Position numbers and translations under genes: made by a program
Origin: a virus
Strand: one strand, 5' to 3'
Virus record (IMG/VR): IMGVR_UViG_3300036799_000108
Span: 2,543-66,542 of that record
DNA length: 64,000 nt
The notes under the pieces: generated by a model
Seen by the model: only the letters and a program-made list of their open reading frames with translations
What the model was told of the DNA's origin: nothing
Databases searched by the model: none
Shown: positions 7,591-37,427 of the stretch, one piece after another
How the letters are laid out: each line of letters starts with the position of its first letter
Numbering within the stretch: the first letter of the stretch is position 1

Positions 7591-8232
7591 CTACCCCTCG
7601 TCCTGCTTCGGCACCGTTTCGCCCAGCAGGACGAGGCCCATGTAGGTCACGCGCGATCCCTTATCGCCATCGGCCTGCCAGCGGCGTTCGATGCTGGCAT
7701 GCATGATCTCGCAGATCCGGCGCAATGCGCGCTCGATGATGTCGTTGCGCGCCGCACCCATGCCCGGCATGTGGTGTTTGATGCGCGCCAGCTTCGCCAG
7801 CGCCTTGCTGGTGCCGCCCATGTTCATCTTCAGCCCTGTGCCCTCGGTGATCACGAGGCCCATCCGATCGCCCGGGGCGAGTGGCCGCCGCACGGCGATG
7901 AGGTAGAGCTGTTCCCACGGGCTGCCCCAGTGATCGCAGTCGAAGATGGTGAACTGACTGAGATCGATCGCGCGCAGCACTCGTCGGTTGTCGGCAACGT
8001 AGGCTGCGCGATCATCGTGCGGATAGAACTGCTTGTCGCAGCCAATGTAGCCGGCGGCCTGGTGCCACACGGCACGATACATCGCGCCCTCACCCGCGAA
8101 GCAATCGAACACCCGAGCATTCTCGGCGCCGATCGCGCCCAGCACCATCTCGCGGATGCGGGCTTTCGCGTTCTCCGCGGCCTTGCTGTTATCGCGCTTG
8201 CCGTAGCGCAGGAGATCCTGGCTGATGTCCAC
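7591..8232 (-). CDS. SAM-dependent methyltransferase-like protein (TcmP-like partner of DUF5131)
   Basis: VFDCFAGEG (motif I), DNRRVL, FDCDHWGSPW. Confidence 0.7.
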   Translation of the reverse strand: MDISQDLLRYGKRDNSKAAENAKARIREMVLGAIGAENARVFDCFAGEGAMYRAVWHQAAGYIGCDKQFYPHDDRAAYVADNRRVLRAIDLSQFTIFDCDHWGSPWEQLYLIAVRRPLAPGDRMGLVITEGTGLKMNMGGTSKALAKLARIKHHMPGMGAARNDIIERALRRICEIMHASIERRWQADGDKGSRVTYMGLVLLGETVPKQDEG

Positions 8233-8233
8233 G

Positions 8234-8647
8234 TCAGTCCCTCGCCCTGGCGTTCCAGGGCTTGAACGCGCGCATCGCTTCTGGCGTCAGCAACGGGTTG
8301 TCCCAGCTTCCATCGAACCGGACACAGCGATCGTCGATGGTCAACCATGCGGCAGGCTTCTTGTCGGCGAAGCTGAACGTCAGCGGCTCGGTCGGATGGC
8401 GCTGGCCACCGCCCTTGATCCAGGCATTGCGTTGCTCATGCAGCCAGAGCGTCATCGCGACGATGCCGGCTTCGTCTTTCGAGCGCGACGAATAGATCAC
8501 CAGTTCAAAATCGTGGCGCACGCGCTCGACCCACTCGAAGAAGCCCCGCACCACATCGCCGTAAATGGTGCCGTCCTGCCAGCCCTTTTCGTATGAGTGG
8601 ATAACCCCATCGAAGTCGATGCAGATGGTGGGTTTGAACTCAGCCAT
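8234..8647 (-). CDS. HAD-superfamily phosphatase
   Basis: DFDGVIH (motif I), YSSR (II), K (III), IDDR (IV). Confidence 0.85.
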
Positions 8648-27455: not shown

Positions 27456-28052
27456 ATGACGAAGCGCAGACCAAGTTCTGATCGTATCCGCCCCTGGCAC
27501 CGCGGCTCGGTGTTCGGTGACGGCCGACGCCGGCCTATGAACCGCGATGAAAAGGGCATCTGGCGGCGCCTCGTGCATCGCCACGTCAGGGCCGGCGGGA
27601 TCGGCCCCAAGGGCGCCTGGGCGCTGGAGGTGCTACCGGACTACCTCGCGCGGGACGGCCGCTGTGACCCGTCACACGCCCGTCTGGCGGCTGATGCCGG
27701 AGTGGGGGAGAGCACGGTCGCGCGGGCCCTGGCGGACGCCAAGGCCGTTGGGCTGCTGGATTGGGATCGCCGGCTCGTGCGCACCGGCTGGCGGGCCGAG
27801 CAGACCAGCAACGCCTATGTGCTGATCGTGCCGGGCAGCAGGGCAGGGGAGGGAGCACCGCCGCCTCAGCCTGCACCGCCTATCAAGAGCTTAAAGCTTG
27901 AATCTGGTTACACTGTCGCCGTGAATGTCGCAGCACTGCCGGTGATGGATCCCGCCGCCCAACAGGCCAGGATCGCGGCTAAATGGGCAGAGGAACGGCG
28001 GCTGCGGCTCGCCCGACTCGGTGCGAATCGAGGGGTGAATCGCATGGGCTAG
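27456..28052 (+). CDS. Plasmid-type HTH replication initiator (HTH_36-like)
   Basis: DGRCDPSHARLAADAGVGESTVARAL..GLLDWDRRLVRTGWRAEQTSNAYVL, the pattern of Acetobacteraceae-type plasmid HTH Rep proteins. Confidence 0.7.
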   Translation: MTKRRPSSDRIRPWHRGSVFGDGRRRPMNRDEKGIWRRLVHRHVRAGGIGPKGAWALEVLPDYLARDGRCDPSHARLAADAGVGESTVARALADAKAVGLLDWDRRLVRTGWRAEQTSNAYVLIVPGSRAGEGAPPPQPAPPIKSLKLESGYTVAVNVAALPVMDPAAQQARIAAKWAEERRLRLARLGANRGVNRMG

Positions 28053-28081
28053 TTTTGTTCTGACGGCCCGACGGCCCACGG

Positions 28082-29077
28082 TCAGAAGATCGTGGTGATC
28101 ATCGGGCCGATGCTGGGGATCGTGGCCACGCCGGCGGCGGCCCAGTGCTCAATGGCGGCCTGGGTGACCCAGACGGGCGGCGGGGCCACGCCAGCCCAGT
28201 GCTCCAGCGCGGCCTGCGTCACCGCGATCTGAACGAAGCCGCTGGTCGTGGTGGCCCAATGCTCGAAGGCGACCTGGGTGACCCAGAGCGGCGAGGCATC
28301 CGTGCCGCCCCACTCTTCCAGCGCGATCTGGGTGACCTGTGCCGCCGGGCTGCCGGCACCCCACTCCTCGATGGCGATCTGGGTGACCTGCGCATCGGGG
28401 AACAGAACTTGCCACTGCTCGACCGCCGCCTGGGTGAGCCACATCTGTGGCACCGGGAGGTACCACTCCTCGACCGCGGCCTGGGTGACGAGCGCGTTGG
28501 TATTGATCGTGGCGCCTGCGGTGAAGCCGCTGGTGAAGCCGCTCGGGACTGTGCCGCTGAACGCGCTGTCACCGAAGTTTGCGACGATATTGCCTGCGCC
28601 GTTGAAATACGCCCAGGGGTACAGCGGTAAGCCCAAACCGCCTGTGATACCGATGCCCCCAACGCCGGTCCCCGGTGAGGCTGCGGCGCTATTGTTCCAG
28701 TTCCCCGATGGCGCTACACGAAACCAGATCAGACGATTGGAAAGATCAACCGCAACGCCATACACATCTCCGGACGATCTGACGCCAAGTTGTATCCCGG
28801 TAGAGACGTTATCGACAGAAATGGTTCCGTTTATATTCACGACTGCGGAAGGGGCTACCGTGGTCGATATTCCAAGCGTGGTGTTGATACCCACCAAACC
28901 TATATAGGTGGCTGAATTGGTAGTGTTCATGGTAAATTCTAAATAGAACTTCCCGCTGGCTTGCCGGTCTGCGGCGCGAAGTCCTTGAGCGACAGTAATC
29001 GTTGTCGCCGTCAGATTGCCATTCGACAACGTGACGCTGGCGGTTTTGTCGGTGGTGCTCCATGTGGTGCCAGCCAT
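28082..29077 (-). CDS. Tail-associated SPRY/ConA-like protein with 7 C-terminal (V/L)TQxAxExW repeats
   Basis: TLSNGNLTAT, SGKFYLEF, GDVYGVAVDL, NFG..F.GTVPSGF. Confidence 0.8.
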   Translation of the reverse strand: MAGTTWSTTDKTASVTLSNGNLTATTITVAQGLRAADRQASGKFYLEFTMNTTNSATYIGLVGINTTLGISTTVAPSAVVNINGTISVDNVSTGIQLGVRSSGDVYGVAVDLSNRLIWFRVAPSGNWNNSAAASPGTGVGGIGITGGLGLPLYPWAYFNGAGNIVANFGDSAFSGTVPSGFTSGFTAGATINTNALVTQAAVEEWYLPVPQMWLTQAAVEQWQVLFPDAQVTQIAIEEWGAGSPAAQVTQIALEEWGGTDASPLWVTQVAFEHWATTTSGFVQIAVTQAALEHWAGVAPPPVWVTQAAIEHWAAAGVATIPSIGPMITTIF

Positions 29078-29095
29078 CGCTTAGCTCACAACTCG

Positions 29096-29110
29096 TGCTA
29101 CATTATCGGC
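29096..29110 (+). promoter_or_regulatory. Extended -10 (TG-C-TACATT) 6 nt before the HNH ATG; leaderless promoter candidate
   Basis: Same geometry at 31201-31215. Confidence 0.55.
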
Positions 29111-29701
29111 ATGAGACATGCGAGCATCACAGCCGACTGTGTGGTCTGTGGAACCGCCTTTCATCCGTGGCGGCACGCGATCGGACGCGCGCGCTTCTGT
29201 AGCCGAGCCTGCTATAAGAACAGATTGGGCAGCAACACCGAGGAAAAGTTCTGGACAAACGTCGTGAAAGGCGATGACTGCTGGATCTACAAGCGTGTAG
29301 GCCGGCGTGGTTACGGAAAGATGCTGGCGGATGGTAGGCATAAGCGGGCTCACCGGATCGCCTGGGAACTGAACAAGGGGGAAATACCCGCAGGACTGTT
29401 CGTTTGCCACACTTGCGATAACCCGTCCTGCGTTCGACCTGACCATCTGTTCCTCGGTACAGCCGCCGACAACACTGCCGATATGCTGGCGAAGGGGAGG
29501 CGTGTCGCACCAAGCACCGCCAACAGACCGCGCGGTGAACGTCACCACAATAGCAAGATCACTGCCACCGAAGCTCGTCGCATCAAAGCGCTTTGGGCAA
29601 AAGGCGGCAGAAGACAGGCAGACATCGGTGCTATGTTCGGTGTCAGCCAGACTGCCGTGTATCATATCGTTCATGGGCACAGTTGGGCACATATCAGCTA
29701 A
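29111..29701 (+). CDS. HNH homing endonuclease 1 (antisense to the tail operon)
   Basis: CW..GYG..AHR.AW..VCHTCDNPSCVRPDHLFLGT..DN..DM; C-terminal HTH ending WAHI. Confidence 0.93.
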   Translation: MRHASITADCVVCGTAFHPWRHAIGRARFCSRACYKNRLGSNTEEKFWTNVVKGDDCWIYKRVGRRGYGKMLADGRHKRAHRIAWELNKGEIPAGLFVCHTCDNPSCVRPDHLFLGTAADNTADMLAKGRRVAPSTANRPRGERHHNSKITATEARRIKALWAKGGRRQADIGAMFGVSQTAVYHIVHGHSWAHIS

Positions 29702-31178
29702 TTACGACCGGGCCGATTTGGCAATTATCCGCATTGGCCGCCGTCCAGGCCGAGCCGGTGTTCGGATCGGTGAGATCCATGCGCCATGCCCACTGCCAGC
29801 CGCTGTTGGTCAGCGTGAGTGTCGGCGAGGCGACAGTCGTGGAGCCAGACTTGATCCGCATCGAAGCGGTGCGCGAACCAGCATCGGACTTCTGCATATA
29901 CCCGCGTGTAGTCATCGCGATGATGGCGCCAGGGGTAGGCGTTGGCGTGATGGTGCCGAAGGCGTAGAAGTCCGCGTCGTTCACCGTGCTGTCGTAGACA
30001 TAGGTTGCTGTGCCGTCCTGCTGGGCTTCACTGACCACATCGCAATTCGCGCTGATCGTAAAAGTTATCGAACAGAGTGCCGCGTTGCTGGTGGTCATAG
30101 CGGGCGAGGCCGCAGGGAAACTCGCATACGAGGTCGTGCTGGTACCTCCTGATGTCACGGTTCCGCCAAAGCTAAAAGTGCCGGACGACGTATCGCTGAC
30201 AAAACCGAACCAATACTGTGTTCCTTTAGCCACCGTGACTGGTGTTCCAAAGGTAAACGTATTGATCCCCGTTACGGGGTTTGTGATGGCGGTAGCCGAG
30301 CCCAGCACCGTCGTCGGTGCACTTCCTGAAGACGCGAAGATCGAGCACTTCATATTGCCCGTGTAGCCAGCGCCCAGGGTGACAGTTGCCGTGCCAATCG
30401 TGCCGTCCCAGGCGGCCACAAAGGACGAGTATCGCGGCTGCCCTGCTGTGATGCCGGCGTTCGATATGATCGTGTAGGGCGTTTGGATGGCCGTCGTCGG
30501 CGACCGCGAGAACTGCACACTCGCATCGCTCGCTGGCATCCGGGTGTAGCACCGAATGTCGCCTATCCACGCCACGCTCGATGCGTCGGAGCGCCAGAAC
30601 AGATCATCGACCTGTTGGTTAACACTCGCGTTCACTCCGAATGTCAGTCGGTTGGCGTAAGCATTTACAGAGTTCTGCGTATCCAGGCTGCCCAGCGCGT
30701 GGTCGTTGCTAGTGTTGCCGTTCTTGCGCACCACCCAACTGCCGGTCGTGTTGTTGATCACCACTTCGATCTCGAACGCATACCATGTGGCGCTTGCTGT
30801 CACCGCGCCGGTATAGGTGTCCAGCGTCGTTCCTGCTGGACCGCCGGAAGTCAGCAGGATCGCGCCGTCGCTACGGAACACTACAGAGCATTGCGCTGTA
30901 GCTCCGTCTCCCAAGGAAAAGTAGGTAACACTTGACGTTCCTGATAGAGCTGCGGTCTGATAAAACGCGCAGACGATGTGGTGAACAGCATCGTTTTGCC
31001 CACTGTTCTTGATGAGGTTCATGCCAAGGGTGGCACACTGCAAGGCACGACTGCCCGCAAATCGGCCGGCTACTAGGGTGTAGTTGACGGAGCTGCCTGT
31101 GATGGCGTCCCAATACCCGTTGATGGCATCGGCGGCCGCCGTATACAGATCGAACCCGTCACCAAAGGACCATGCCAT
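29694..31178 (-). CDS. Tail-associated lectin-like (ConA/LamG-like) protein, paralogue 3
   Basis: FGDGFDLY N-terminus; C-terminal TTRGYMQKSDAG..DPNTGSAWT shared with two paralogues. Confidence 0.8.
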   Translation of the reverse strand: MAWSFGDGFDLYTAAADAINGYWDAITGSSVNYTLVAGRFAGSRALQCATLGMNLIKNSGQNDAVHHIVCAFYQTAALSGTSSVTYFSLGDGATAQCSVVFRSDGAILLTSGGPAGTTLDTYTGAVTASATWYAFEIEVVINNTTGSWVVRKNGNTSNDHALGSLDTQNSVNAYANRLTFGVNASVNQQVDDLFWRSDASSVAWIGDIRCYTRMPASDASVQFSRSPTTAIQTPYTIISNAGITAGQPRYSSFVAAWDGTIGTATVTLGAGYTGNMKCSIFASSGSAPTTVLGSATAITNPVTGINTFTFGTPVTVAKGTQYWFGFVSDTSSGTFSFGGTVTSGGTSTTSYASFPAASPAMTTSNAALCSITFTISANCDVVSEAQQDGTATYVYDSTVNDADFYAFGTITPTPTPGAIIAMTTRGYMQKSDAGSRTASMRIKSGSTTVASPTLTLTNSGWQWAWRMDLTDPNTGSAWTAANADNCQIGPVVIS

Positions 31179-31200
31179 CTCACGTCACCATGCCGAGTTG

Positions 31201-31215
31201 TGCTATGTTCGCTCG
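31201..31215 (+). promoter_or_regulatory. Extended -10 (TG-C-TATGTT) 6 nt before the HNH ATG
   Basis: Same geometry as 29096-29110. Confidence 0.55.
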
Positions 31216-31821
31216 ATGAGCCAGCCAAGCCTCACGGTCAATTGCATCAACTGCAACAAGGTCTATCACCCCAGGCCGTCTCAGTTCAGGCGGAGCACAC
31301 GTCACTTTTGCAGCCGCGCATGTGCGGACGGTCGTAGAATGGGAACCGTGGAGGAGCGGTTCTGGCGAAACGTCGTCCACGGGCGGGGATGTTGGACCTA
31401 CGAGAATGTGGGAGGAAATGGATACGGGAAGTTGCTCGTCAATGGAAAACACACACGCGCGCATCGTCTTGCATGGAAACTGACCAACGGGGTCATCCCG
31501 ACCGATATGCTTGTCTGCCATTCCTGCGACAACCCGTCCTGCGTGAGACCCGACCACCTGTTCCTTGGCACCAACGCTGATAATAGTGCGGACATGAACG
31601 CCAAAGGACGGACTGCCAGAGGAGAAAGATGCGCCCCCAGGAATCCTGCACGAGGCGAGCGTGATGCCAACGCGGTCTTGACCGCAGCCAAAGTCAGACG
31701 CATCCGGCTGCTTTACGCCACTGGACGAATTAGCCAGCAGAAGATCGCCGACAGTTTTGGGGTTAATCAAACTTGCATCTCCGCAGTCGTGCGACGGTTT
31801 ACCTGGGCACATGTCAGGTGA
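31216..31821 (+). CDS. HNH homing endonuclease 2 (antisense to the tail operon)
   Basis: CWT..GYG..AHRLAW..VCHSCDNPSCVRPDHLFLGT..DN..DM; ends WAHVR; paralogue of HNH 1. Confidence 0.93.
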   Translation: MSQPSLTVNCINCNKVYHPRPSQFRRSTRHFCSRACADGRRMGTVEERFWRNVVHGRGCWTYENVGGNGYGKLLVNGKHTRAHRLAWKLTNGVIPTDMLVCHSCDNPSCVRPDHLFLGTNADNSADMNAKGRTARGERCAPRNPARGERDANAVLTAAKVRRIRLLYATGRISQQKIADSFGVNQTCISAVVRRFTWAHVR

Positions 31822-33313
31822 CTATCGCCGGACCGATATTGACAGCATCCACCGCCGCGGCCGTCCACGCCAAGCCGGTGTTGGGATCGACGAGGTCGGT
31901 GCGCGATACCCACTGAAAGCTCTGAGCTGCCAGGGCCAGCGGCGACGAGGCCACGGTTGTGCCGCCCGATTTGATCTGCACCGCGGCGCTGCGGTTACCG
32001 GCATCGCTCTTCTGTATATACCCGCGTGTAGTGACGCCGACGATGGTCGTGGGCGTGCTGGCGATGGTGCCGATGCTGTAGAGATCGGCGTGGCCGACGG
32101 CGTTGTCGGAGACGTAGCTGGCGGTGCCGTCCTGCTGCTGCTCGTTGACAAACTGAGCGTTGGCAATTGTCGTTGGGGTGATGCTTGCCGTAAAGACACG
32201 CGGGGAGGCGCCGGACGTGACTACTGGATTGCTAGTCGGGAAAGAGGCATAGGTGTCGCTGGACCGAAAGTAGGCTGTCGTTGTATTGCTTGTCACGTAT
32301 TGCCCCGAGCCTGCATCGGCATTGAAGGCAATGAAGTATAAGGTTCCTGCGACGACGGACGGCGGTGATGAAAAAGTAAACGTATTGTTTCCCACCCCTG
32401 GTGCGCTGATCGGTGTGGCCGAACCTAAAGCCGTCGCCGGCAAGCCTCCAGAACTTGAATAGAGAGAGCATTTGAAGTTTGCAGTTGAGGCGACAGCGAT
32501 GGCTATCGTCAACGAAGTGAGCGTGCCAGAGGCAATCGGTGTGAATGGAATGTATTGGCCTTGGTTGGCGAGGACCGCTGTAGATGACTGGTTCGGATAT
32601 GGTGTCATCGGCACCACGCTACCGGAGCGGGTGAACTGCACCGATTGATCGGCCAGGGGCATCCGGGTGAAGCACCGCACGTCGCCGGTCCACGCGACGC
32701 TCGATGCGTCGCTGCGCCAGAGGAAGTCGTCGATGGTCTGTCCAAGACTGGTAGCAAAGTTCGAGCCGACTGCAATCTTATTCGCATAATTGTTGGCTGA
32801 AGCGCGGGTGTTCAGCGAGCCGAGCGTGAAGTCGTTGCTGGAATTGCCGTTCTTGCGCACACTGATCGACCCGGTCGTATTGTTGATCACCACCTCGATC
32901 TCGAACGAGTACCAAGTGTTAATCGCCGCTATTGCCCCGGTATAAGTCGCCAGCGTCGTTCCACCCAACGCACCTGATTGCAACAAAATCGCTCCGTCGC
33001 TGCGGAAGACGATCGTGCATTGCGCCGTAGCGCCATCAGATAGCGTGAAGAATGTTCCATTGGTCGTTCCAGTAAGAGGGGGCACCTGTAGAATGGCCAC
33101 TGTAATATGATGCACGGCATCATTGATGCCGGAAGTTTTGCTTATGTAGGGTGTAATGCTGCTGGTGGGAGACAACAGGCCGCGACTGCCGGCGAACCGA
33201 CCGCTTGCAGACAACGCCAGCGATGCTGTGCTGCCAAACGTCGCATCCCAATAGGTGCCGCAGTCGGTGAGTGTCGCGTAGAGATCGAACCCGTCGCCGA
33301 AGAAGAATGCCAT
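31814..33313 (-). CDS. Tail-associated lectin-like protein, paralogue 2
   Basis: MAFFFGDGFDLY; same architecture. Confidence 0.8.
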   Translation of the reverse strand: MAFFFGDGFDLYATLTDCGTYWDATFGSTASLALSASGRFAGSRGLLSPTSSITPYISKTSGINDAVHHITVAILQVPPLTGTTNGTFFTLSDGATAQCTIVFRSDGAILLQSGALGGTTLATYTGAIAAINTWYSFEIEVVINNTTGSISVRKNGNSSNDFTLGSLNTRASANNYANKIAVGSNFATSLGQTIDDFLWRSDASSVAWTGDVRCFTRMPLADQSVQFTRSGSVVPMTPYPNQSSTAVLANQGQYIPFTPIASGTLTSLTIAIAVASTANFKCSLYSSSGGLPATALGSATPISAPGVGNNTFTFSSPPSVVAGTLYFIAFNADAGSGQYVTSNTTTAYFRSSDTYASFPTSNPVVTSGASPRVFTASITPTTIANAQFVNEQQQDGTASYVSDNAVGHADLYSIGTIASTPTTIVGVTTRGYIQKSDAGNRSAAVQIKSGGTTVASSPLALAAQSFQWVSRTDLVDPNTGLAWTAAAVDAVNIGPAIVT

Positions 33314-33326
33314 CCCACCCTCGCTG

Positions 33327-34811
33327 CTAGCTGACGATGATCGGCCCGATCTGGGCGCTGTTCACCGCGGTTGCGGTCCAGGCCGCGCCTGTGTTCGGGT
33401 CCGTGACGTCGGTGCGGTAGAGCCACGTCCAGACGCCCGCAGACAGGCTGCCAGCCGGTGTCGACTGGACCGTGGTCGAGCCAGACTTGAGCTGCATGGC
33501 AGTCGAGCGCGGCCCGGTGTCGCTCTTCTGGACGAACCCTCGTGTGGTCACCGCGATCGTCCCAGCCGGCGTGCTGCCGATCCCGGCGACGTTGTAGAAG
33601 TCCGCGTGGCTGACCGTGCTGTCGATGACATAGGATGTGGTGCCGTCCTGCTGCGCTTCGGCAACCACACTGCTGTTGGTGCCCACCGAGATCGTCAGCG
33701 AACAGACCACCGCTGCGGCGGCGCTGGTGGTCGGTGATGCGGCCGGGAAGCTCGCATAGGCAGTCGTGCTCTGGAGGCCGGTCGTGCCGCTGGCCACGCT
33801 CCAAGTGCCGGAAGCCGTGTCGCTGTCAAAGCCAATCCAATATTGCGTCCCCTTGGCCACGGCAACCGGCGTGCCAAAGGTGAGCGCATTGGAGCCACTG
33901 GCCGGGTTCGTGACGACGGTCGCAGATCCAAGCACGGTCGTTGGTGCGGTGCCGGAAGAAGCGAAGATGGAGCACTTGAGGTTGCCGGTATAGCCAGTGC
34001 CGAGCGAGACCGTCGCGGCGCCGATTGTGCCGTCATACGCCGCCGTGAATGCAGTGTAGCGGGCGGTGCCATTCGCGACGGCTGCGGTCGTCGATGCTGT
34101 GACTGGCGTCTGCGTGTTGACGGTTGGCGTCCGCGAGAACTGCACGCTGGCATCGGAGGCTGGCATGCGCGTGTAGCAGCGGATGTCGCCCATCCAGGCC
34201 ACGCTGCTCGCGTCGCTGCGCCAGAAGAGGTCGTCGATTGGCTGACCTGTCACCAAGGTGTTCAACCCAACCAACAGCTTATTAGCGTAGGCATTCGCCG
34301 AGTTCTGCGTGTCTATGCTTCCACTCGCAAAGTCATTGCTGGTGTTGCCGTTCTTTCTGACGTTGAACGCGCCGGTCGTGTTGTTGATAACGATCTCGAA
34401 TTCGAACGCATACCATGTATTGATCGTCGGGAAGGCTCCTGTGTAAGTCGCAAGGACCGTTCCGGCAGGCCCACCGGAGGTCAGCAGAATGGCACCATCG
34501 CTACGGAACACGATGGAGCATTGCGCTGTCGCCCCATCAAACAGTCCCAAATACAAACCCAAATTAGAGCCGGTGATCGTCGCAGTTTGCCTGAATGCAC
34601 ACACGATGTGGTGCACGGCATCGTTGACGCCAGACGTTTTGGTTAGAGAAACACTAAGGGAATTTCCGAGCTGCCACGCCTGACTGCCGGCGAAGCGTCC
34701 TGCGACCAGCGTGGTGAGCGAGCCAACCGTTGCGGCTGAGTCCCAATAGCCTTGGATCGCGTCAGCCGCCGCCGCATACAGGTCGAATCCGTCGCCAAAG
34801 TTGAACGCCAT
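33327..34811 (-). CDS. Tail-associated lectin-like protein, paralogue 1
   Basis: MAFNFGDGFDLY; same architecture. Confidence 0.8.
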   Translation of the reverse strand: MAFNFGDGFDLYAAAADAIQGYWDSAATVGSLTTLVAGRFAGSQAWQLGNSLSVSLTKTSGVNDAVHHIVCAFRQTATITGSNLGLYLGLFDGATAQCSIVFRSDGAILLTSGGPAGTVLATYTGAFPTINTWYAFEFEIVINNTTGAFNVRKNGNTSNDFASGSIDTQNSANAYANKLLVGLNTLVTGQPIDDLFWRSDASSVAWMGDIRCYTRMPASDASVQFSRTPTVNTQTPVTASTTAAVANGTARYTAFTAAYDGTIGAATVSLGTGYTGNLKCSIFASSGTAPTTVLGSATVVTNPASGSNALTFGTPVAVAKGTQYWIGFDSDTASGTWSVASGTTGLQSTTAYASFPAASPTTSAAAAVVCSLTISVGTNSSVVAEAQQDGTTSYVIDSTVSHADFYNVAGIGSTPAGTIAVTTRGFVQKSDTGPRSTAMQLKSGSTTVQSTPAGSLSAGVWTWLYRTDVTDPNTGAAWTATAVNSAQIGPIIVS

Positions 34812-34814
34812 GGC

Positions 34815-36260
34815 TCAGCTCCACGTCACGTTGAGGCTCAGCAGCGCATCGGTCGGTGAGCTGGTGACGCCCGAGATGACGGCGGTGATGTGCTGACCGG
34901 CGGTGAAGGTGTTCGCGGCGGTGGCCGTCGCCGTGGCCGCGGTCGTGTTGTTGACGGTGACCGCGCCAAGTCCCGTCACGTTCGTGCCGGCTATCTTCAC
35001 CGCAACGACGAACGAGCCGACCTCGGTGAAATAGGTGAGCGAGTTGATCGTGCCGTTGTAGGGCGGGTCGTAGGCGAAGAAGATCGTATCATTTTGAACG
35101 ATCGCCCCTGACACCCATTGGGCTTGCATGCGGGCAGCGCTGCGGGCTGATCCCGCCGGTCCGGTTGGACCGATGAGGTTCGCGACGACGGTGTAGGCAC
35201 CCGAGATCTTCTGGGAGACGTCGCCGGTCGTGTCGTTGAGGTAGAAGTCGCCATTGACGCCAAGGCCACTCGACGGTGCTCCTGTGCCGTTGCGCCAGAC
35301 GCTTCCTGCTGCCCCAGCAGCTCCCGTCGTGCCAGTCGCGCCGGCAGGCCCTCGCAGGTTCGCGACGACTGAATAGAGGCCAGAGGCCTTCAGGTAGACA
35401 TCGCCAAATGTGTGCTCGAGGTAGTAGTCGCCCTCGATGCCGAGAGTGCTGGCTGGCGGACCGGTGCCATCGCGCCAGGTCGTGCCATGGTCGCCTGTGC
35501 GGGTGAAGGTGAAGCCGAGATCGTCCAGACTGGAGAATGGGCTGGCGCTGGATTGCCCGATCGCGACAACGGCAAGCTCGGCATAGCCGGTGTGGGAGAT
35601 GTAGTCCGTGACGGAGAAGACCAGGAACTTTGTGCTGTCGAGGACATTGTAGAGGCGCACGGTGCCTTTCTCGGTGCTCGTGCCGGTATCGATGCTGGCC
35701 AGCACGCTGGTCCAGTCCGAACCGCTGAGATCGATGTTATCGAGGTAGATCCCGGTGGAGGCATTCTGCGTCGTGGCACTCAGCCGCAGCCGTCCCGCCC
35801 CCGGATCGGCATTCGTGGTCGTGGCGTCGAACTGATAGACCATCGAAACACCGCCACCAGCCGCCCCAGACACGCCAGGAGGGCCGGGGCCGCCAGTGCC
35901 GTAGCCGATGGTGTCGAAGCCGGTGCACTGGATCACAGCCCCGTTGCCGGCCGGTAGCGCGAAGGTCGCGCCCGTGAGCCCTCCCACGGTCACGGCAGCC
36001 GTGCCGGTGTTGCGCACCACGAACACGCGCTTGGTCAGGGGGATGATCAGCGAACGGGTGGTGCTGACGTTGGTGCAGACGAAGACCTGAAATCGCGTGA
36101 ACTGCGTCGTGGTGAGCGTGATGTTGCCGGCCGAGAAGTCCAGCACCAGTTGATCCTGCAGCGCTCCCTCGAGCTGCACGATCCCGTCGTTCATGGTGGT
36201 GGTTTTGTCGGTCTGCGTTGGCGCAGTCAGCGGGATCGACAGGATCGGTGAGACTGCCAT
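34815..36260 (-). CDS. Tail fibre protein with DUF2793-like N-terminus and collagen-like segments
   Basis: SPILSIP..QTDK..MND..LE; GPAGATGTTGAAGAAG; two WRxGTGxP..G..GDxYL repeats. Confidence 0.78.
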   Translation of the reverse strand: MAVSPILSIPLTAPTQTDKTTTMNDGIVQLEGALQDQLVLDFSAGNITLTTTQFTRFQVFVCTNVSTTRSLIIPLTKRVFVVRNTGTAAVTVGGLTGATFALPAGNGAVIQCTGFDTIGYGTGGPGPPGVSGAAGGGVSMVYQFDATTTNADPGAGRLRLSATTQNASTGIYLDNIDLSGSDWTSVLASIDTGTSTEKGTVRLYNVLDSTKFLVFSVTDYISHTGYAELAVVAIGQSSASPFSSLDDLGFTFTRTGDHGTTWRDGTGPPASTLGIEGDYYLEHTFGDVYLKASGLYSVVANLRGPAGATGTTGAAGAAGSVWRNGTGAPSSGLGVNGDFYLNDTTGDVSQKISGAYTVVANLIGPTGPAGSARSAARMQAQWVSGAIVQNDTIFFAYDPPYNGTINSLTYFTEVGSFVVAVKIAGTNVTGLGAVTVNNTTAATATATAANTFTAGQHITAVISGVTSSPTDALLSLNVTWS

Positions 36261-37427
36261 TTACCGCATCCTTCTCGCGCCGATGAAGCCAGTACAGCTC
36301 AGAGTGCCGCCAGCGAAGGTCACCATCGCAGACAGGTAGACGGTCGCCGTCGCTGCGAGAGAGAGCCGCATTCTGCCTGTCGTCAGGACGATCACATCGC
36401 CACCTTGCGTGGTTAACCCGTTGGTCCGCTGGAGTCCTCCCTGCAGCGTCGCCGGGTAGGCTGCGGATGTCGTGGACGGCCAGACAGAGATGTCGCTGAT
36501 CTTTGTTCCAGATGCTGGGATGGTCCCGACCTGCCCCTGCACATCCCAATCGCCAGCCGTCAGGCTGATGGTCGTCACATTGAGAGCCACCGCGTTGCTT
36601 GTGGTCACCCCTGGGCTCGCGACCGAGGCTGATATGAATTCGCCAATCTGTCCTGCTGCAGCATTGTCGTTGGTGGTGGTGCCAGCGCGGACTTGGGCTT
36701 GTGTCTGATACCCGGCCGGGTTGTTGGCGGCATACCTGCTTGTATCTACGGGATGTACATGATCGGCCCGGGCCCATGTCGTGCCGGTGCCGACCGCAAC
36801 AGTCCCGTCCATGGCTGGCGGCGTGCTGGAGGCGACAGGCACAACAGCGGTGACCTGGGCCGCGGTCTGGAAGCCACTCGGGTTGCTCGCCGCATAGCGC
36901 GACGTATCGACAGGATGGGTATGATCGCCGCGGGCGAAGCGCTGCGAAACACCGGCTGTTGGCGTACCGTTCATGAGCGGCGGCTGGGTCGATCCCTGGT
37001 TCTGCACGTATTCGGTCGTCGCAACGAGTTCGGAATTGTCGTCTATTGCCGGCGTATCGGTGCGGAGCGTGCCGGATCGGGCGAGGTCATGGACGAATTT
37101 CGTGGTCGCTATCGCATCCGAACTATCGGACGGCAGCATGCTGGGCGCTGTCGGTGAGCCTGTGAACTGCGGTGAGTTAATTGGTGCCCGCGAGGCGTCG
37201 GTGGGATGAATGTGGTCGGCGCGAGCGTACTGCTCCATCTTGCCCGCGCTTGGTGGCTGGTCCGACATCTCTGGTGGATGCGAACTGGCGAGCACAGTGA
37301 CGTATGTCGCGAAGACGTCTAGCGACGCATTCAAAGGCGCGTCGATACCGACCCGTGCGATCGGCACCACGTCATTGGCGAACAACTCCACGACAGGCGT
37401 CGCATCACTGATTTTGACGTCAGGCAT
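36261..37427 (-). CDS. Tail fibre protein with three RxDHxHP repeats
   Basis: ARADHIHP, ARGDHTHP, ARADHVHP; C-terminal NAAAGQIGE..LTAGDWDV. Confidence 0.8.
   Translation of the reverse strand: MPDVKISDATPVVELFANDVVPIARVGIDAPLNASLDVFATYVTVLASSHPPEMSDQPPSAGKMEQYARADHIHPTDASRAPINSPQFTGSPTAPSMLPSDSSDAIATTKFVHDLARSGTLRTDTPAIDDNSELVATTEYVQNQGSTQPPLMNGTPTAGVSQRFARGDHTHPVDTSRYAASNPSGFQTAAQVTAVVPVASSTPPAMDGTVAVGTGTTWARADHVHPVDTSRYAANNPAGYQTQAQVRAGTTTNDNAAAGQIGEFISASVASPGVTTSNAVALNVTTISLTAGDWDVQGQVGTIPASGTKISDISVWPSTTSAAYPATLQGGLQRTNGLTTQGGDVIVLTTGRMRLSLAATATVYLSAMVTFAGGTLSCTGFIGARRMR

Follow-up and report, generated by a model that had tools for sequence, protein, structure and literature searches.

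The 64,000-nucleotide stretch analyzed here (the window; positions 2,543 to 66,542 of IMG/VR virus record IMGVR_UViG_3300036799_000108) covers 64 kb of a 69.6-kb phage genome from a soil metagenome assembly, with 62% G+C. Its minus-strand tail region spans 28.0–41 kb, and two plus-strand genes break up the array. Both are HNH_3 homing-endonuclease genes, termed HNH1 and HNH2 below (Table 1). A codon-level comparison with their relatives shows selection, as far as nucleotide sequences can reveal it, for stop-free frames that run from junction to junction on the strand opposite such a gene, and this selection is tied to backward orientation of the gene in its operon. The Pfam PF13392 scores of HNH1 and HNH2 exceed the gathering cut-off of 24.8 bits, and PHROG HNH families are matched at E = 1e-28; a PDB sequence search with HNH1 returned no match at E <= 0.01. 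HNH1 contains an N-terminal Cys-rich region, an HNH core, and a C-terminal helix-turn-helix that ends in WAHIS. The columns V-C-H-x-C-D-N-P-x-C...P-x-H-x-F-L-G-T...D-N, which hold metal-binding/catalytic core residues, are invariant across five divergent members. The two proteins share 50% identity (BLASTP) and are the sole members of their family in the genome. An earlier reading of the letters without database searches (the sequence-only reading) had placed both genes on the plus strand within the minus-strand tail operon, each with an overlap of 8 nucleotides (nt) on the stop of the tail gene that precedes it. The coordinates bear this out, with the overlap at 29694–29701 on tailB in cassette 1 and a like overlap on tailC in cassette 2.

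The opposite strand of both HNH genes is free of stop codons, as the sequence-only reading had noted, and encodes 203 amino acids (aa) across HNH1 and 210 aa across HNH2. The boundaries of these bridging open reading frames (ORFs) fit those of the flanking tail genes. Bridge 1 opens with an ATG (29692–29690) that lies 1 nt past the tailB TGA and is the reverse of the His codon in the HNH1 terminus ...WAHIS, and its TAA (29083–29081) is located 3 nt ahead of the tailA ATG (29077). Bridge 2 likewise opens 1 nt past the tailC TGA, at the reverse of the His codon in the C-terminal ...WAH of HNH2, and its TGA is located 1 nt ahead of the tailB ATG (31178). The stop-to-start gaps amount to 1 + 3 nt in cassette 1 and 1 + 1 nt in cassette 2. 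The bridge ends (...RVVS and ...GMVT) also echo the tail-protein ends (...VVIS and ...AIVT), and every one of these boundary features described earlier is found in place. The tail-gene frame and the bridge frame are offset by one base, so each bridge is a separate ORF and not an in-frame extension of the tail gene. Each open frame runs antisense to its HNH gene and shares its codon register, so that only the sense codons TTA, CTA and TCA create a stop in the mirror (mirror stops hereafter). The other four alternative frames contain 4–11 stops each.

Antisense frames are often open in GC-rich DNA, a caveat that accompanied the sequence-only reading and that proved justified. TTA, CTA and TCA make up ~1% of the codons of this genome, and stop-free mirrors are found in 6 of its 19 genes of 150–270 codons. 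Synonymous resampling that keeps the protein gives a probability of no mirror stop of 0.27 for HNH1 and 0.19 for HNH2 under genome codon usage, 0.15 and 0.08 under tailB/tailC usage, and 0.064 and 0.027 under the usage of co-oriented HNH relatives. From their own composition, 1.9 mirror stops are expected in HNH1 and 4.0 in HNH2; none is observed in either, and none of the 30–33 A-ending codons per HNH gene is TTA, CTA or TCA. Since the window alone lies within chance, the test had to be comparative. At the codon level, the openness is highly non-random only once the comparative survey is added.

The survey comprised a discovery set of 138 distinct HNH relatives from viral and metagenome contigs and a separately drawn replication set of 73 distinct HNH genes from genome contigs of many phyla, which total 211. 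For each gene, the coding sequence was called, TTA, CTA and TCA were counted, and the expected number was derived from how often the same gene chooses an A-ending codon at its other degenerate codons. Neighbours (the nearest within 250 nt, by a simple ORF caller) were classed by strand, and genes with opposite-strand genes on both flanks were scored as backwards-embedded. HNH1, HNH2 and the related locus L030 were left out of the counts. In the discovery set, mirror stops are absent from 8/15 backwards genes versus 1/59 co-oriented genes; with G+C at third codon positions (GC3) of at least 0.5, the counts are 8/11 versus 1/27 (Fisher p = 2.8e-5). The replication set yields 10/17 versus 1/17 (Fisher p = 0.002) and, at the same GC3 threshold, 7/9 versus 1/12 (Fisher p = 0.002). 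When the sets are combined, 18/32 backwards genes are stop-free versus 2/76 co-oriented genes (Fisher p = 4.7e-10), with 15/20 versus 2/39 at GC3 >= 0.5 (p = 4e-8) and 14/19 versus 1/35 at GC3 0.5–0.75 (Fisher p = 4.7e-8). A survey of HNH homologues for the same antisense boundaries had been suggested as a check together with the sequence-only reading, and the survey made here shows this orientation-linked excess.

Co-oriented genes carry 1.7 mirror stops per 100 codons, which is 0.73 of the computed expectation, and six annotated co-oriented HNH genes from four cultured phages carry 1–5 apiece. A cultured phage with the backwards arrangement was sought; four candidates with minus-strand hits (Ralstonia GP4, Myxococcus Mx9, Pseudomonas BUCT566 and Pseudanabaena Pam5) are all co-oriented and serve as controls only. 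In three low-GC3 backwards genes that are stop-free (L198, L276 and L244), openness by chance is very unlikely, and two further low-GC3 genes with one flank known (L148 and L153) are stop-free where 7–8 mirror stops are expected. Further stop-free backwards genes, namely L065 beside a capsid gene, L107, L139 and those in the replication set, occupy different parts of the HNH tree described below or belong to gene contexts that are unrelated. By these codon counts, the excess of open mirrors is tied to orientation, and codon composition alone fails to account for its frequency. One gene that initially appeared as a backwards exception, L134, has 'neighbours' that translate to junk and are probably not genes; it was kept in the counts, which is conservative.

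Both ends are measurable in 16 of the 18 stop-free cases. There, the start of the bridge falls between -4 and +11 nt relative to the upstream stop, and its end between -14 and +14 nt relative to the start codon that follows. The junctions in these 16 cases are mostly ATGA, TGATG or ATGnnTRA overlaps. Absence of the boundary coincidence from other insertions had been named as an outcome that would speak against the sequence-only reading; the coincidence is present in these cases. At L125, the conserved His is encoded by CAC, and the bridge opens with GTG. The L125 bridge (1532–2587 in operon orientation) is 351 codons long and extends ~430 nt past the HNH gene, which may reflect a two-gene backwards cassette or an N-terminally extended HNH. 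L244 (1440–2042, in a genome contig labelled Nitrososphaerota archaeon) has a stop-free bridge at a GC3 of only 0.29. L201 (663–2138, in an Abditibacterium contig) has a stop-free bridge over a 420-codon HNH-containing gene, with 13 stops expected and 0 observed. The habit of stop-free bridging seems to extend far beyond this phage group.

HNH1, HNH2, L030 and L118–L122 form one clade in a tree of 80 HNH proteins (Shimodaira–Hasegawa-like approximate likelihood ratio test support, 99). HNH2 is nearer to L118 and L119 than to HNH1 in the tree, which indicates that the two copies in the window are no recent tandem duplication. All eight members (8/8) are backwards and stop-free over 1575 codons in total, where 27 mirror stops are expected from their own A-ending usage, or ~20 after calibration on the co-oriented genes, and 0 are observed. 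At conserved-amino-acid sites, the same codon is used in 0.41 of pairs versus 0.38 expected at saturation. The synonymous sites are near saturation, so codon choice is effectively independent among the eight and the absence of stops is not inherited. In the clade, the bridges start 1, 1, 1, 9, 1, 5, 1 and 5 nt after the upstream stop and end at +3, +1, -8, -1, -1, -4, -4 and -4 nt relative to the downstream ATG, in junctions of the form TGATG, ATGA, ATGnnTAA, or stop + 1–3 nt + ATG. The tail stop lies outside the HNH gene at L030, where another ATG, also 1 nt past the stop, opens the same frame. Seven of the eight members follow a gene that ends in ...(I/V)GPxVxx, and the downstream genes differ. 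At L119–L121, the cassette is followed by a conserved ORF of 70 codons that starts with MTDV(R/N)... rather than the MANTxW gene described below, and it always overlaps the bridge stop as ATGA or TGATG.

Among 37 related tail loci, most lack an HNH gene and have the flanking genes directly adjacent. At L030 and L118–L121, the HNH gene occupies the same tail-gene 3' end, and its presence is sporadic among otherwise collinear relatives. A search for HNH-free alleles, which had also been proposed earlier, identified 13 junctions in 12 relatives, with the genes 0–8 nt apart or overlapping by 1 nt. Before the MANTxW gene, the HNH-free junction reads ...IGP(K/V)V(I/V/T)(S/A), stop, 0–8 nt or 1-nt overlap, ATG. 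The HNH-free junctions are directly coupled, which indicates that coupling is the native state. tailA is homologous to the MANTxW genes, which in HNH-free relatives (L001, L002, L006, L009 and L014–L017) come directly after the tail paralogue.

Each cassette is located between two diverged copies of this native junction. On the left, the junction copy terminates the tail gene and provides the bridge start; on the right, it terminates the bridge in frame and provides the start of the following gene. The left and right copies of cassette 2 match at 10/13 positions. The right copy of cassette 1 resembles the native ends ATT AGC TGA T ATG and TGG AGC TGA GCC ATG, the second of which is the uninterrupted minus-strand junction that the sequence-only reading had used for comparison and whose sequence is confirmed at 34809–34823. 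Bridge ends in the relatives are also tail-like (KVIA, KIQA and KATS; compare the tail ends KVIS and KVTS). The target of the HNH protein is probably the conserved 3' end of this tail gene family, as suggested by association and in line with the target proposed in the sequence-only reading. At L016 (7642–8376), a backwards HNH gene is located one gene further downstream, after the neighbour of the tailA homologue. An ORF of 210 codons on the operon strand (7642–8274) begins within the final part of the gene before it and spans the greater part of this HNH gene; because the next gene is more than 100 nt away, this ORF may be a partial or decaying bridge.

The motif TGCTAnnnT had been described exactly 6 nt before the ATG of each HNH gene, and it is found there, as TGCTACATT (29096–29104) and TGCTATGTT (31201–31209). 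The same leaderless geometry (TAnnnT, 6 nt, ATG) recurs in 7/8 clade members, and in five of those seven TGn precedes TAnnnT to give an extended -10. No Shine-Dalgarno sequence is found before the HNH ATG in the clade members with the TAnnnT geometry, including HNH1 and HNH2, and a consensus sigma-70 scan of 28000–34900 detects no -35/-10 pair. A terminator scan of the same interval gives terminator-like sites at or below the shuffled expectation, and no terminator flanks the cassettes. These sequence features suggest that the HNH protein is probably made from its own leaderless transcript that starts at its ATG.

Besides the cassettes, the tail region contains three paralogues of ~495 aa that are 53–65% identical mutually, with tailB sharing 53% identity with tailC and 65% with tailD. 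A near-identity DNA search with the 6.9-kb region against 50,697 phage records gave zero matches, and a protein search with the tail paralogue gave weak matches only, in Brevundimonas phages. tailB and tailC, which have an HNH gene behind them, show a G+C of 0.58–0.59 and a GC3 of 0.69, versus 0.62–0.64 and 0.76–0.81 for the unoccupied tailD and tailE. Still lower values are found in the HNH genes (G+C 0.57, GC3 0.63–0.65; genome GC3 ~0.78). This gradient would fit co-conversion, in which the 3' parts of the tail genes are imported along with the cassettes during homing.

Table 1. Features of the two cassettes and of the surrounding tail region. Positions refer to the window.
Feature	Position	Strand	Description	Evidence
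HNH1	29111-29701	+	HNH_3 homing-endonuclease gene, 196 aa	Pfam PF13392, 55.8 bits
HNH2	31216-31821	+	HNH_3 homing-endonuclease gene, 201 aa	Pfam PF13392, 49.7 bits
Bridging ORF 1	29692->29081	-	203 codons; mirror of HNH1 and its 30-nt upstream region	sequence
Bridging ORF 2	31812->31180	-	210 codons	sequence
Putative leaderless promoter, HNH1	29096-29110	+	extended -10-like TGCTACATT and 6-nt spacer	
Putative leaderless promoter, HNH2	31201-31215	+	TGCTATGTT and 6-nt spacer	
Cassette 1, left junction copy	29690-29702	-	ATT AGC TGA T ATG	
Cassette 1, right junction copy	29075-29089	-	GTG AGC TAA GCG ATG (bridge V S, stop, tailA start)	
Cassette 2, left junction copy	31810-31822	-	GTC ACC TGA C ATG	
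Cassette 2, right junction copy	31176-31188	-	GTG ACG TGA G ATG (bridge V T, stop, tailB start)	
Junction tailE->tailD	34809-34823	-	unoccupied, directly coupled: TGG AGC TGA GCC ATG	
Junction tailD->tailC	33311-33329	-	unoccupied: TAG, 13-nt spacer with GAGGG, ATG	empty site, same genome
tailA	28082-29077	-	downstream tail-region gene, 331 aa, N-terminus MAGTTWS	phrog_10080
tailB	29694-31178	-	tail paralogue, 494 aa, ends QIGPVVIS	phrog_2448; weak DUF4082 match
tailC	31814-33313	-	tail paralogue, 499 aa, ends NIGPAIVT	ORF list, Pfam/PHROG
tailD	33327-34811	-	tail paralogue, 494 aa, ends QIGPIIVS; no HNH gene after it	ORF list, Pfam/PHROG
tailE	34815-36260	-		
Tail-fibre-like gene	36261-37427	-		
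Tail protein	within the 28.0-41 kb tail region	-	1206 aa	

The usual view is that homing endonucleases persist by hiding in introns or inteins, or by insertion between genes in the same direction; placed backwards in a structural operon with tight coupling, such a gene should carry a cost. The interpretation that we consider probable is that each HNH_3 cassette sits backwards at a coupling junction and that its mirror is kept stop-free so that the ribosomes of the operon can cross to the next tail gene. In this model, a free-standing HNH_3 gene would enter, in backward orientation, the stop/start junction through which a tail-fibre paralogue is coupled to its downstream neighbour. Ribosomes that end the tail gene would restart 1 nt further on, at the ATG provided by the reverse of the conserved HNH His codon, and read the mirror of the HNH gene and of its short promoter region without meeting a stop. 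They would then stop at the duplicated downstream junction (the last codons of the tail gene, a stop, 1–3 nt and an ATG) and restart on the next tail gene. Selection would purge TTA, CTA and TCA from the HNH gene, so that the late tail-operon mRNA is translated over the ~620-nt insert. Termination-reinitiation coupling would be kept, and the antisense RNA would stay covered by ribosomes, which would avoid Rho-dependent polarity or decay. The act of translation would count, and the bridge protein would not. The comparative test supports the sequence-only reading, which had taken these genes for homing endonucleases crossed by translational pass-through; bridge translation and its benefit for coupling and against polarity are what we infer.

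Several points weigh against this interpretation. The window by itself is compatible with chance, with a joint probability of ~0.05 under genome codon usage. Some backwards genes have real-looking neighbours and yet carry mirror stops (5 in L149, 8 in L235, 2 in L223, and 1 each in L131 and L257), mirror stops also occur in most AT-rich backwards cases, and the rule is thus not universal. Neighbour orientation in the survey comes from a simple ORF caller rather than from curated annotation. The eight tail-junction cases belong to one clade, so the backward insertion there may have a single origin, and a phylogenetic independent-pairs test on the HNH tree, which has too few supported branches, remains below significance. 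Some downstream genes, as at L065, have their own Shine-Dalgarno sequence, so coupling cannot be the sole benefit. The arrangement is known from sequence alone, in a soil-metagenome genome, and no cultured example was found. The sequencing runs that contain this sequence are all soil-metagenome DNA, one of them the probable source, and no RNA run is listed among them.

Other explanations were weighed against the pass-through of operon ribosomes. It is unlikely that control of the endonuclease or of its antisense RNA, and not the downstream tail genes, is the main reason for selection on translation. In such a case, ribosomes moving along the operon strand might block duplex formation with the HNH mRNA or silence the HNH gene late in infection. 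The 3' end of the bridge contains the promoter and start of the HNH gene, convergent transcription is unavoidable in such a layout, and the ambigrammatic narnaviruses need translation of their reverse ORF, possibly for ribosome protection of the RNA (PMC8316113). This control model, however, leaves unexplained why both bridge ends reproduce coupling junctions with the flanking genes.

We regard as similarly unlikely that the openness is a relic of the origin of the cassettes, in which an HNH gene landed in frame in the last tail codons and was read through as in the actinophage ShiLan (see below), with a stop and a restart acquired later. The last 3–4 tail-gene codons and the stop are duplicated in frame at every bridge end in the clade, as this history would predict, and same-strand insertions provide a precedent for read-through HNH genes (PMC11855218). 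However, with saturated synonymous sites and ~20–27 stops expected in the clade, an unselected relic would have decayed, and the same openness is found in unrelated lineages and other gene contexts. A relic accounts for origin and not for maintenance, and it is compatible with selection for pass-through.

It is improbable that the bridge encodes a functional protein, such as a tail-fibre assembly factor or an HNH inhibitor, in a true pair of two-strand overlapping genes. The start contexts are good, the late operon is highly expressed, and the size of ~200 aa and the position are those of tail-fibre chaperone genes. Bridge 2 is also present in a public protein collection as a called gene from the 69,648-nt source contig; gene callers evidently can choose the relay frame, and annotation of backwards HNH genes may be incomplete. 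Against a functional protein, the bridge proteins match no Pfam or PHROG family, and a search of 5.8 billion proteins with bridge 2 found only itself, although this search needs shared 5-residue words and is hence weak. HNH-free relatives have no gene at this position. Identity between the bridge proteins is 28%, compared with 50% for the HNH proteins, and with the synonymous sites saturated this is no more conservation than the HNH mirror imposes. The AlphaFold model of the bridge protein has a mean predicted local distance difference test score (pLDDT) of 28 and a predicted template modelling score (pTM) of 0.13, which is weak evidence because the alignment holds a shallow eight sequences. 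Bridges in unrelated contexts (L065 beside the capsid gene, L107) share openness alone. The bridge protein is unconserved, which indicates that selection acts on openness rather than on protein sequence.

Chance 'shadow' ORFs of GC-rich DNA, with neat boundaries by coincidence or simple inheritance, are very improbable: mirror-stop codons are indeed rare in this genome, similar genes are often open, and the conserved His codon supplies the bridge start codon for free, but the HNH genes have a low GC3 and many A-ending codons, co-oriented relatives of the same GC3 carry stops at the rate given above and are seldom open, the orientation effect was replicated in a separate collection, and synonymous saturation in the clade means that inheritance cannot account for the missing stops. 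The reverse possibility, in which the minus-strand ORFs would be the true genes and the resemblance to HNH a spurious one, was ruled out by the Pfam and PHROG scores and by the absence of a gene at this site in relatives.

No account of an open frame that bridges a backwards endonuclease gene came up in full-text literature searches, and within the literature searched, translational pass-through of a free-standing homing endonuclease gene is previously undescribed. The nearest publication found is that of the 'hidden' HNH of ShiLan, a same-strand, out-of-frame gene inside an actinophage DNA methylase gene, across which the host frame is open (Arsenault, Gosselin and Gogarten 2025, PMC11855218). 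In both systems, the HNH gene is tolerated through a stop-free frame on the host strand without intron or intein splicing, it occurs sporadically among related phages, and leaderless initiation of the HNH, suggested here, is proposed there as well. The ShiLan HNH, however, shares the strand of the gene that surrounds it, and translation continues through it to yield an internal insertion in the protein, whereas the HNH genes described here lie on the opposite strand between genes and are crossed by a separate ORF with its own start and stop at coupling distance.

The seg and mob genes of T4 are also stand-alone endonuclease ORFs between conserved phage genes, absent from close relatives, that must fit the transcription and translation programme of the host; start/stop overlaps are noted among them (mobE, UAAUGA; PMC2988022). 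All T4 homing endonuclease genes are co-oriented except segD, and antisense transcripts are discussed only as a hazard; segD is believed to be expressed at a very low level, and a bridging frame is not mentioned for it (PMC2988022). In contrast to the cassettes here, no selection on the opposite strand is described for T4. In the ambigrammatic narnaviruses, a reverse ORF runs over the RNA-dependent RNA polymerase gene (Retallack et al. 2021, PMC8316113). There, as here, a codon-aligned reverse frame without known homology is stop-free over the whole gene, and what is proposed to matter is that it is translated, not what it encodes. Narnaviruses, however, are eukaryotic RNA viruses in which both strands are RNA genomes or antigenomes, whereas the open frame here lies on the operon mRNA of a DNA phage, between coupling junctions. 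The ATGA, TGATG and TGAnATG forms at the bridge ends and native junctions are those of termination-reinitiation coupling in bacterial and phage operons. The difference is that the middle cistron here apparently has no product function and would only relay ribosomes across foreign antisense DNA.

Backwards HNH cassettes may, as we put forward tentatively, be gene-mimicking mobile modules with a product-less relay cistron, which would constitute a widespread third silent route beside introns and inteins. If so, the endonuclease would be phenotypically silent through translation rather than through RNA or protein splicing, and the same ribosome traffic may shut it off once late transcription starts. 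The cassettes would then be a DNA-phage counterpart of the ambigrammatic RNA viruses, in soil phages and in prophages of many phyla, and annotation pipelines would often call the relay frame in place of the endonuclease. The relay of cassette 2 is already in a public collection, a warning that gene callers may annotate the relay ORF and miss the endonuclease. Orientation-dependent stop-free mirror frames provide a measurable signature for locating such inserts. The data suggest a simple and general solution to the insertion of a backwards gene, in which three codons are purged so that operon ribosomes cross. This would be a clean natural case of selection on translation itself and not on a protein. 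It also suggests a design rule for antisense cargo in phage operons without polarity, and it makes testable how far coupling and Rho polarity limit the landing sites of mobile genes.

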